A stretch of DNA of 64,000 nucleotides. Origin: Octopus vulgaris (Eukaryota). Numbering within the stretch: the stretch's first letter is position 1; every line of letters begins with the position of its first letter. A program made the translations under genes and the position numbers. Of this stretch, positions 1,701-51,432 are shown piece after piece. The notes under the pieces were generated by a model. That model saw only the letters and a program-made list of their open reading frames with translations. It did no database searches and had not been told where the DNA came from. The stretch is from assembly GCA_951406725.2 (NCBI GenBank), contig OX597832.1:45074001-45138000 (forward strand), read 5' to 3'.

Positions 1701-2024
1701 TATTTTATTTAATTACATTACGTTACTTAGCGTTTCAATTAGGGAAACTGGTGCATTAAACAGTCAAAATAAAGGAGGTTTTGGAAAAACAAACATTAAA
1801 AAAAATATATTTCGAATTACAGGTTGTACCAAACCAGCAGGTAAACGAACCCTGGTAAAAGTATTTATTCCAAAAATATTGCTTTATAACACTAATTACC
1901 TGTAACAAATAAGCACTATGTAGTACCGTGGATTTTGTAAGGGAGCTGTCATGGGTTGGATGGTTTGACTAGAGTGGGCAAGCTGCACCAGGTTCCAGTC
2001 TGATTTGGCTTGGTATCCATGGCT

Positions 2025-4241: not shown

Positions 4242-4800
4242 CATCATCATCGTTTAACGTCCGTTTTCTATGCTAGCATGGGTTGGACGGTTCGACAGGG
4301 ATCTGGGAAGCCAGGGGGCTGCACCAGGCTCCAGTCTGATCTGGCAGTGTTTCTACAGCTGGATGCCCTTCCTAACGCCAACCACTCCATGAGTGTAGTG
4401 GGTGCTTTTTATGTGCCACCGGCACAGGTGCCAGGCGAGGCTGGCAATGGCCACAATCGGTTGCTGCTTTTTACGTGCCACCTTCATGGAAGCCAGTCAA
4501 GGCGGCGCTGGCATCAGCCATGTTCAGATGGTGCTTTTTACATGCCACCGGCACAGGGATCACAACTTCAATTTCCATTGATTTTTGATGTTGATGTACT
4601 TGACTGAATAGGTCTCCTCAAGCACAGGGTCGAAACGGTGTTTCTTTACTTGCCACCTGCACAGGAGTCAGTCCAGCGGCACTGGCAACTGCTGGGTGCC
4701 AGTCATAGGATTGGTTCAATTTCGATTCCAATTTCACTTGCCCCAACAGGTCTTCGCAAGCAGAGTTTAGTGTCCAATGAAGGGAGGTTGGCATGGCTGC
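4242..4800 (-). mobile_element. RTE LINE 3' end (3' UTR with tandem palindromic units and (GAT)n tail), family B
   Basis: Minus strand ...GTTAGGAAGGGCATCCAGCTGTAGAAAC...GGACGTTAAACGATGATG. The family is linked to an RTE ORF end at 9112-9180 and 60400-60502. Confidence 0.75.
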
Positions 4801-6151: not shown

Positions 6152-6525
6152 ATGACGCCTGTCTGTGACGTCCTGTTTTTGTTATTATTATTATTATCAT
6201 TATTGTTTTTACGTATTTTCGTATTCTTCTTCGTGTTATCATTATTGTTTTTACATATTTTTGTATTCTTATTCGTGTAACATCATCCATTTTCCCGTCC
6301 ATGTTTTGTATACATTTGAGGCTTTCTTCCAAGGAATCTAATGCGCTTAGCTTAGATTTTCCTTTGGGGCTGGCCAGGTCGGAGCAATCTCAAGATTAAT
6401 CAGCCGAAATTGCGAGGATGATCCGGTTCTTGACTGAAGATTGAAGGCTTCGAATGTCCCGTCCGTGTTTTTTGTATCGCCTTCTAAATGTTTTGCGTTC
6501 TTGTCCCAGTTTGTATTTTTTTTTT
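6152..6525 (+). mobile_element. Repeat next to (TA)n, probably a Penelope-like terminus, carrying a permuted hammerhead-like motif
   Basis: A second, diverged copy lies at 51208-51432 (-), also abutting (TA)n. Confidence 0.55.
6368..6454 (+). ncRNA. Candidate hammerhead-like ribozyme with non-canonical strand order
   Basis: GCAAT-C-TCAAGA (6384-6395), CAGCC-GAAA-TTGC (6401-6413) and TCTTGA-CTGAAGA (6428-6440). Confidence 0.45.
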
Positions 6526-7033
6526 ACATATACATATACAATAACTGAGACATGTCTACATACAAAAGCAGAGAGAGTGCACAAGAAATGAAACACATTT
6601 GTACATACATGAACAGAGACACACCTGCACATAATAGCAAACACATACCTGTACATTCAATAACCGACACACATTTGTATACACAACAACAAAGAGAGAG
6701 ACGCTTATACATACATGAATCGAGAGACAGCTGCACATGCAAGAACAGACAGAGAGAGTAAACATAAACAGAACGACACCTGTATGTTCAATAGGAAGAG
6801 GCATTTGTATATCAAAGGAAAGAGAGAGAGAAAGAGAGAGAGAGAAAGAGGTCGGTATATACAGGCACAGAGAAGGACACTTGATTCAATTATCCAAGAC
6901 GTAAATGGAATTATAATAGAAGTAGCATTAGGCCATCTCAAGACCCCAACACACAGACCCAGAGGCTTCGAAGGACGTGACGAAGTCATTTCCATAAACG
7001 CTAGTTCTCAGAGCTGAAATGAATGTAGAGATA

Positions 7034-7398
7034 CTCCTGTGTGGTAAGTAGTTTGTCTACCAACCACATGGTTCCGGGTTCAGTCCCACTGCGTGGCACC
7101 TTGGGCAAGTGTCTTCTACTATAGCCTCGGGCCGACCAAAGCCTTGTGAGTGGATTTGGTAGACGGAAACTGAAAGAAGCCCGTCGTATATATGTATATA
7201 TATATATATGCGTGTGTGTGTTTGTGTATCTGTGTTTGACCCCCTAGCATTGCTTGACAACTGATGCTGGTGTGTTTATGTCCCCGTTACTTAGCGGTTC
7301 GGCAAAAGAGACCGATAGAATAAGTACTGGGCTTACAAAAGAATAAGTCCTGGGGTCGAGTTGCTTGATTAAAGGCAGTGCTCCAGCATGGCCGCAGT
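7034..7398 (+). mobile_element. SINE family A
   Basis: Matches the type copy. A short family B tail follows at 7419-7580 (-). Confidence 0.85.
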
Positions 7399-8585
7399 CA
7401 AATGACTGAAACAAGAGTATCATCATCATCGTTTAACGCCCGCTTTCCATGCTAGCATGGGTTGGACGGTTCGACCAGGGTCTGGGAAGCCAGAAGGCTG
7501 CACCAGGCTCCAGTCTGATCTGGCAGTGTTTCTACAGCTGGATGCCCTTCCTAACGCCAACCACTCCGTGAGTGTAGTGCTATACTGTATAGCAAAACTA
7601 ATCCAGAGCCTGCTAGCACGACAATACAGATACTAAGCCGATGATGATGATAGCATGGAAGACAAACAGACAGACTGACACACACACACACACGAGAGAT
7701 CATCATGGCCTAGTAGTTAGGGTGTTGCATTCACGATTGCAAAATTGTGGTTTCAATTTCCAGAGCAGCAGTACATTGTGAGCAAAATACTTCATAGCAC
7801 ACTGCTTCAGCTTGCTTAACTGCAAATGATCAACACTGATGGACTTGCATTATGTTCAGTGGGAACGTTGACCTGACTGCCTGCCAAGCCAGTGGGGTGG
7901 CATAATTCAAAAGCTATAACAATGCAAGGAAGCGCACTGTGATCAGTGATGTATATAACAACATCCAAAGGTCTGGTTAATACAGTGAAATAAATATATT
8001 TATATATATATATATATATAGGTGCAAAGACATCACTGGCAGCAAAGCTGTATTGACCATTGCCTTTCCCTTGGATAACATCAGTGGCACAGAGAGGGGA
8101 GTCTGGTATGTACGGGCAACTGCTGGTCTTCTATAAACAACCTTGCCCAGACTTGTGCCTCGGAGGGGAACTTTCCAGGTGCAACCACTAGATCACAAGT
8201 TCAAATCCCAAACCAAGCGGTGCATCATATTCTTGACCAAAACACTCCATGTCACATTGTCCATGTTCTTGTCCAGTCAGCTGTAAATGGGTAACCCTGA
8301 GACGATCAGGGGGTATGTTGGCTTGCTCACCTATCTGGTGGGGTGGATAGGCAAGCATCATTTGAAAGCTAAGAATGTGAAGCACATTGTGAACAGTGAT
8401 GTAGAACAGTATCTAATAGTCTAGTCAATATCATGATATATATATATATATATATATATGGGTCAAAACAGTTTGATTCAAATTCATTGGTACTTTTGAG
8501 TTTTAAGTGTGATGCTAGTCATCAGCCATTATGAATTTGAATGACAGAAGTTGATTGTTATTACAGTAAGGTTGGCTGCAATTGG

Positions 8586-33077: not shown

Positions 33078-33280
33078 TGACCGCGTGTGTACCGTTGGCA
33101 TTTTTTTTTCCCTCTGTCTTCCCTTCTCTGGATCTTTACTTCTCCTGTGTTTCTGACGAAGAGGTCCGCTCAAAACGTTAAACCCTCCTTCTTCCCTTCC
33201 TTCCCGAGCGTCCAATAATACTATATTTGTTCCACGTCCTCGCGTTGTTGTGTTTTCTCTTTGTGTTTTCATGTTTGGAT

Positions 33281-33328
<48 letters not shown>

Positions 33329-33391
33329 ATCCAAACATGAAAACACAAAGAGAAAACACAACAACGCGAGGACGTGGAACAAATATAGTAT

Positions 33392-51181: not shown

Positions 51182-51207
<26 letters not shown>

Positions 51208-51212
<5 letters not shown>

Positions 51213-51432
51213 CAAAATGGGACAAGAATACAAAACATCCAGACAGCTAGGTGATACAAAAAAGGACAACAAAACATCCAAATAGATGATACAAAGAAAA
51301 CAAGGATGGGTCATTCGGAGTTTTCTTTCCTCAGTCAAGCACCAGATTATCCTCACAATTTCGGCTGATTATTCTTGAGATTGCTCCAATCTGGCCAGCC
51401 CCAAGGAAAAATTAAGCTAAGAGCATTAGATT
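51208..51432 (-). mobile_element. Second copy of the 6152-6525 family
   Basis: GGCTGG-CCAGATT-GGA-GCAAT-C-TCAAGA-ATAAT-CAGCC-GAAA-TTGT...AATCTGG-TG-CTTGA-CTGAGGA. Confidence 0.7.

Follow-up and report, generated by a model that had tools for sequence, protein, structure and literature searches.

The hammerhead ribozyme was divided by Eckert et al. 2023 (PMC10085705) into the blocks S, G and C. Type SGC, which originates from metatranscriptomes, and type CSG, known from few soil-metagenome sequences, were both validated by cleavage and by compensatory mutants. In type SGC a linker of about 3 nt connects stems I and II, and an additional helix binds the other strands of these stems. A break between A9 and G10.1 was assumed to be impossible, with at most 1–2 inserted nucleotides, and the CSG descriptor of that paper requires a contiguous block C. 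One extra nucleotide at A9/G10.1 is tolerated in the plus strand of CChMVd and in the mini-hammerheads of Penelope-like elements (PLEs) (PMC3705267 and PMC4209133, both in part). No split variant of the kind described below was found in the available part of Forgia 2023 (PMC10162972).

Naiads, a clade of PLEs, were reported without a canonical hammerhead (Craig et al. 2021, PMC8557442, in part). Some are flagged as 'HHR_core' or 'HHR_half_core', with the second half located 35–50 nt away on either side. Cephalopod Naiads are described there as long inactive, and the insertion structures given for PLEs are partial tandems, inverted truncated copies, tails and microsatellite targets. The non-LTR retrozymes of animals are proposed to be derived from PLEs or mobilised by them (bioRxiv 10.64898/2026.07.22.740005, in part; Cervera and de la Pena 2020, as cited). 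For a PLE of the anole, cleavage by the hammerhead depended on protein, and in vitro the element could insert without such cleavage (PMC11167929, in part).

Two copies of a predicted hammerhead are present in the window, i.e. the complete 64,000-nt stretch of Octopus vulgaris DNA analysed here. The window element shares with type SGC (HRIMA-1 and variants) the S-G-C order, the short linker between stems I and II, the Watson-Crick interaction helix and two core pseudoknots. In type SGC, however, block C is uninterrupted and the stem II strand follows directly after CUGANGA, within 1–2 nt of A9, whereas in the window element this strand lies 5' of everything else. Type CSG has the same ring of strands, and the window element corresponds to CSG opened inside block C, which is intact in CSG and split here. 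Where CChMVd and the mini-hammerheads have a single bulged base (PMC3705267, PMC4209133, in part), the chain of the window element exits the core altogether, by way of two helices. The predicted ribozyme resembles an SGC/CSG hammerhead but lacks the continuous block C of these types. The first-pass annotation regarded three circular permutations as the only natural hammerheads. The order that it called X-Z-Y is the S-G-C order, which was already described and validated (PMC10085705); the break at A9/G10.1 and the occurrence in animal genomes are new.

According to the best explanation, which is given a probability of about 0.8, the feature is the 3' part of a Penelope-like repeat and a predicted ribozyme of the SGC/CSG class split at A9/G10.1. 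Its likely cut is 3' of C6389, and its mobilisation is likely due to a Naiad-type reverse transcriptase (RT).

Architecture of the split core

The strands are arranged in the order P0, PX, stem II 5' strand, interaction strand, stem III-C17-stem I, stem II-GAAA-stem III, interaction strand, stem I-CUGANGA and P0' (Table 1). Since the stem II 5' strand lies upstream, the opening of the chain falls between A9 and G10.1. The gap is bounded by the hairpin PX, which ends at G10.1, and by the enclosing helix P0, which starts after A9. These two are the dominant predicted helices, and in a nested fold the pairing probability of P0 is 1.0 at 6313–6326. Every partner strand lies within 145 nt of a single copy. 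The strand order does not give the pseudoknot-free three-way junction in circular order that defines types I, II and III. A pairing of CCUUUGG (6361–6367) with 6441–6447 was dropped, as those bases belong to PX and P0.

Table 1. Features of the two window copies and of the predicted ribozyme (window coordinates)
Feature	Position	Strand	Remarks
Subfamily A copy	6154–6537	+	5'-truncated, (TA)n in front; ends approximate
P0, 5' strand	6313–6328	+	Pairs 6441–6456 and encloses the ribozyme; register scan; 80.7% paired
Hairpin PX	6329–6367	+	Ends directly before G10.1; 93–97% paired, a figure on which the use of the 5' arm as search anchor for the copy set bears
Stem II, 5' strand	6368–6373	+	G10.1 = 6368; pairs 6400–6405; 90% paired
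Stem I-II interaction helix, 5' strand	6374–6380	+	Pairs 6420–6426
Block S	6384–6395	+	Stem III strand, AUC triplet (C17 = 6389), stem I strand; predicted cut 3' of 6389
Block G	6401–6413	+	Stem II 3' strand, GAAA (G12–A15.1), stem III strand
Interaction 3' strand, stem I strand and CUGANGA	6420–6440	+	C3–A9; N7 = 6438
P0, 3' strand	6441–6456	+	Begins right after A9; register scan, pairing
Subfamily B copy	51200–51432	-	Truncated inside PX; core 51400–51328, C17 = 51379; ends approximate

The motif GCCGAAA-N18-34-CUGANGA occurs twice in the window, compared with 0.02 occurrences expected from shuffles. Standard searches miss the ribozyme, as had been anticipated: Rfam gave no hammerhead match to 6250–6550 at E≤10, and for the whole window no hammerhead is among the 150 of 270 matches listed.

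The strand order bears out the pseudoknotted, non-circular permutation recognised in the first-pass annotation, and the 5-nt X-Z linker does join stems I and II. All named parts were found in both copies at the positions given there (6368–6453 on the plus strand, 51400–51313 on the minus strand). These are GGCUG (6368–6372), GCAAU (6384–6388), C6389, UCAAGA (6390–6395), CAGCC (6401–6405), GAAA (6406–6409), UCUUGA (6428–6433) and CUGAAGA (6434–6440) in the first copy, and GGCUG (51400–51396), C17 (51379) and CUGAGGA (51334–51328) in the second. The second copy, which is 5'-truncated at about 51432, keeps the parts as claimed, but the sixth pair of its stem I is an A·G mismatch and the end of stem III is a G·U pair. 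Two extra helices had also been proposed. CCAGGUC/GAUCCGG is the covarying interaction helix, although it contains one A·C mismatch and one G·U pair in the first copy. UCGGAG/CUUCGA was abandoned: it is 97% pairable in 91 rows with 0 two-sided changes, it shares 2 nt with the interaction helix, 1 nt with stem III and 6 nt with P0, and it has no counterpart in other families. This pairing may be an alternative fold, as it has additional pairs in subfamily C, in which one pair of P0 is lost. The helices PX and P0 are additions to the earlier model.

The repeat, its conservation and its insertion junctions

Both window copies are members of one non-coding Penelope-like repeat of about 750 nt and are 81% identical over 185 nt. 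Described earlier as two diverged copies, they belong to a family with thousands of copies in the host genome (2.8 Gb, rich in microsatellites). An exact pattern on the 3' flank detects at least 7,278 copies genome-wide (control 0), a pattern on the 5' half of the ribozyme 3,288 (control 0) and a pattern on both flanks 2,866 (control 9). Full units have a length of about 700–810 nt, and tandem arrays of such units are common. The 3' end of the unit is fixed about 90 nt past the core and the 5' ends are ragged. Insertion sites are (TA)n or (CA)n, and some copies end in a tail of about 57 nt. In 30 loci picked by unit start, 24 have a partial tandem, in which the unit directly follows the 3' end of a further one, and an inverted 3' fragment occurs in 3. 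The hallmarks of PLEs found in the repeat are thus the partial tandem, inverted 5'-truncated copies, the optional tail and the microsatellite target. Since these structures match those described for PLEs, the repeat is read as a non-autonomous PLE or a retrozyme-like element.

Members of the Naiad clade likewise insert into (TA)n and show partial tandems, truncated copies in inverted orientation and tails (PMC8557442, in part). Unlike Naiads, the window's family is without an ORF, and its stems differ from those of the Ovul family. Non-LTR retrozymes of animals are likewise non-coding tandem units with one hammerhead each, but they are defined by canonical or minimal type I descriptors (bioRxiv 10.64898/2026.07.22.740005, in part), whereas the window element has a non-circular split core and a longer unit. 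No credible ORF is present in the unit, and ORF searches in 60 and then in 30 loci revealed neither a coding partner nor an autonomous partner with ends matching the window's family. Pfam returned nothing significant for three short frames of locus L161 or for L187. Contigs from four runs, guessed to be RNA, span the ribozyme and show neither ends nor levels.

Other repeats are found nearby. The inverted repeat at 33227–33382 has arms of about 60 nt around (TA)n; its arm resembles the end of another repeat next to locus L013, and it probably arose when a PLE inserted in inverted orientation. At least two other abundant dispersed families (6953–7415, 4242–4518, 106–433 and many other places in the window) are SINE-like in size, with 10–20 copies each per 64 kb.

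Conservation was determined in 90 copies chosen by their flanks alone from the first 100 listed of the 2,866; three tandem neighbours and the last seven were left out. Sets chosen by BLAST or by core patterns (123 unique rows) were excluded, as the core letters are fixed by such a choice. A second allele reaches 10% in 0 of 14 core and closing columns, whereas it does so in 20 of 53 non-stem columns (Fisher p=0.0065, treating copies as unrelated). The hammerhead core C3 U4 G5 A6 N7 G8 A9, G12 A13 A14, A15.1-U16.1 and H17 is conserved with N7 free; this position has three common alleles in the 90 copies (A38/G33/U18/C1), and N17 is C, A or U across families. All 14 core nucleotides are kept in 60 of the 90 copies.

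In the 53-pair structure 89.3% of the cells are paired, compared with 33–52% in slid controls. Two-sided changes are present in 115 cells versus 28.5 in shuffles; counted by pairs, such a change affects 12, which does not exceed shuffles significantly (59/500). Stems I, II and III abut the core in the right register and are paired at 96%, 90% and 96%, respectively. Compensatory states are seen in stem I at 6392/6431 (A-U 63, G-C 23) and 6395/6428 (A-U 57, U-A 25), in the interaction helix at 6380/6420 (U-A 32, C-G 28, U-G 28 in 91 rows) and in P0 at 6314/6455 (A-U 79, U-A 7). The bases 6376 and 6424 of the interaction helix do not pair in 45 of 91 rows. Stems II and III have a two-sided change in only 1 and 2 rows within the window's family. 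They barely vary there, so their covariation rests on the comparison across families, which was partly done by eye. Of the five helices proposed for a covariation check, stem I and the interaction helix covary, stems II and III hardly do so within the family, and UCGGAG/CUUCGA does not. The core is under selection, and the RNA structure is real.

The interaction helix has an A·C mismatch in the window's subfamily. A further subfamily (L200 and L208) has G-C at this pair, which is A-U mostly, suggesting that the mismatch may be a step between two paired states.

Exact junctions between (TA)n and the element were counted genome-wide. There are 18 of them at 6378/9, 11 nt before the predicted cut, about 107 at 6390 and 108 at 6392, 2 nt after the cut. 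Among the first 100 of 116 junctions, 8 are at 6387/8 versus 92 at 6390; TA microhomology at the 6387/8 control is equal or better, and its length exceeds that at the cut by just 2 nt. This roughly tenfold step lies within 2 nt of the bond that was predicted beforehand from hammerhead geometry. In the first listing for 6371–6400, 23 of 27 distinct (TA)n junctions are located at or after 6390 and 4 before (by eye). For 3'-anchored copies, of which the first 100 of 7,278 were used, 23 of 83 at risk end in 6390–6409 and 7 of 60 in 6370–6389 (p=0.02). Three of these seven ends look like internal deletions, and p=0.002 is obtained when they are omitted. The junctions form a plateau over 6390–6430 instead of one sharp peak, and part of the step may come from stalling in the fold. 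In families F2 and F3 (see below), 8 junctions fall within 14 nt after the cut and 1 within 14 nt before it (29 loci); they agree in direction but are too few to weigh. The excess of 5' junctions at or after 6390 is as expected from cleavage in vivo, judged from genomic sequence.

Proposed mechanism and alternatives

Most likely, the core folds as other hammerheads do. Strand exchange with the stacked helices P0 and PX, in a crossover like that of a four-way junction, would take the place of the missing A9-G10.1 bond. As in type SGC, stems I and II would be kept together by the interaction helix and the linker of 4–5 nt. Cleavage of tandem transcripts would yield unit-length RNAs starting with U6390, which are possibly circularised. 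A reverse transcriptase running off the U6390 end would produce the excess of 5' junctions at or just after 6390, since reverse transcription cannot pass the cut on templates that start there. The junction step would then be a genome-only readout of cleavage in vivo.

The same step could be left by a conserved but catalytically silent or vestigial fold, e.g. a protein-binding or priming signal, with the junctions caused by stalling of the RT in the pseudoknot. The spread of the junctions and the equal counts at 6392 and 6390 agree with such a fold, as do the long inactivity of cephalopod Naiads (PMC8557442, in part) and the hammerhead activity that is dispensable for insertion in vitro in another PLE (PMC11167929, in part). 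Nevertheless it is improbable: junctions drop within 2 nt of the pre-predicted bond despite the TA microhomology upstream, and it is exactly the catalytic nucleotides that are invariant, with N7 and N17 varying as in active hammerheads. Assembly between two repeat units or transcripts, in which S, G and CUGANGA of one unit would use the stem II strand of the following unit, either as an SGC hammerhead with an insert of about 600 nt or as a dimer like that of minimal PLE hammerheads, is quite improbable. Tandem arrays of 700–810 nt units would allow it, metazoan PLE mini-hammerheads have been proposed as dimers (PMC4209133, in part), and on a circular monomer the one-unit and two-unit readings have the same topology. 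The two-transcript assembly considered in the first-pass annotation is, however, not needed with all partner strands within reach in one copy. A single unit is closed locally by P0 and PX, the 5 bp of stem III contain no palindrome, and autonomous Naiads with a single 3' UTR copy show this arrangement as well.

An ordinary type SGC hammerhead, in which stem II is formed by the downstream GGCU (6446–6449) after a 5-nt bulge and the upstream GGCUG is incidental, is highly improbable. In subfamily A the GGCU 5 nt after A9 could indeed pair with AGCC, but subfamilies B and C lack it (A at 6446 in 45/90 and at 6447 in 31/90 copies), and its bases are taken up by P0. Furthermore, the upstream GGCUG strand is conserved and changes together with the GAAA-adjacent strand across families. 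Matches of the window's family never have a downstream stem II; a weak optional one is present in 13 of 154 S-G-C matches, all from other families.

Split cores in other families and in Naiads

The split ribozyme, closed within one unit, was also searched for with a descriptor in 772 kb of fetched DNA, which is enriched for these repeats and derives from partly overlapping loci. It gave 212 matches versus 0–1 per shuffle (5 shuffles). At least five other sequence families in the genome have the same layout. Stems II/III/I are GACAC, AUGGU-A and CUGCCC in family F2, GAAGG, CGUGU-U and CUGCCC in F3, GAAGGA, UACGU-C and UCGCU in L015, and GUGCC, CCCAGU-C and UUAUC in L178; a relative is present in L231. 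The stems are fully replaced between families while the layout is kept, and the stem II strands change together (GGCUG/CAGCC, GACAC/GUGUC, GAAGG/CCUUC, GUGCC/GGCAC). A hairpin equivalent to PX, of different sequence, is present in other families. CUGANGA is found at the right distance in 27 of 30 loci of this genome. Metagenome matches were rejected as chance, with CUGANGA at the right distance in 0 of 80 fetched loci (of 120 reported).

In F3 loci (L139, L158 and others, about 1530–1540) G8-A9-AGG repeats the stem II 5' strand GAAGG. It is possible that this duplicate competes for the same partner and acts as a built-in off state.

The common pattern of F2 and F3 has 1,338 matches (control 1). 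By eye, the published consensi Naiad_Ovul and Naiad_Obim, which have the same ribozyme form as the window element, match F2 at their 3' end. F2 is found 1.1–1.7 kb downstream, on the same strand, in 6 of 30 loci matched by a C-terminal piece of a Naiad-like RT; this piece was taken from upstream of an F2 copy, and the distance is near the limit of the 1.5-kb flanks. The RT frame of locus L176 matches RVT_1 with E=2e-4, below the Pfam curated cut-off. The Naiad ORF with N-terminal GIY-YIG and C-terminal RT is absent from the window's repeat unit, and F2 is a sister family behind Naiad-like RT remnants. Frames in L060 and L204, which adjoin element copies on the opposite strand, look by eye like the RT C-terminus and the GIY-YIG part encoded by canonical Penelope ORFs.

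The last 420–490 nt (approximately) of 53 of the 54 Naiad consensi were read by eye (PMC8557442 file S5; Cmel left out). The split form was recognised in 10 of these 53 3' ends, with unrelated stems: Bfor (stem I only 2 bp), 3_Chem, Amil, Aacu, Anas, 2_Movir, Plae, EuTe, Obim and Ovul. They represent seven distinct sequence families from five phyla. Both PX and P0 can be recognised in 7 of the 10; the two octopus consensi have a weak P0, and in Plae it is out of view. Six nematode Naiads (1-3_Nbra, Hcon, Hpol and Asuum) are of type CSG by eye, with an intact block C and an interaction helix, and the Smim 3' end looks SGC-like with a 3-nt insert. The Esco, Ptep and Dst copies are ambiguous, and the remaining consensi have no such motif in the stretch read by eye.

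In CGi, Sglo, Olur, Tgra, Pmar, Skow, Pfla, 1_Chem and 2_Chem, a different conserved and structured-looking motif without CUGANGA occupies the place of the hammerhead. Yet another common 3'-end motif is present in Scon, Mmer, Mgal, Bpla and Mphi. Both are candidates for other ribozyme classes.

The split-core hammerhead appears to be the ribozyme reported missing from Naiads. In the literature searched, largely open-access, neither SGC/CSG nor split hammerheads were described for Naiads or for animal genomes. It is fairly probable that Naiad PLEs are the main home of non-circular hammerheads, with the split topology dominant outside nematodes, active in vivo and present at a copy number of thousands per genome in at least five animal phyla. 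If true, this would answer why the most abundant PLE clade of many invertebrates seemed to have lost its hammerhead. Non-circular permutations would move from unknown metatranscriptomic agents to named animal genomes, where their copy number is high. The working rule that CUGANGA and stem II are inseparable would be overturned, which would enlarge the search space for ribozymes, and engineers would obtain a new insertion point beside the active site. The link to Naiad PLEs makes the puzzle of the missing hammerhead testable, and a transcript of about 160 nt suffices.

A minimal hammerhead-like motif in canonical order (CUGACGA, hairpin, GAAAC), which is part of another repeat, is located in L013 (about 1735–1900, reverse strand) and L021 (about 1850–1900) and adjoins copies of the window's element. 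The same (TA)n tracts appear to harbour both canonical and permuted hammerhead forms.
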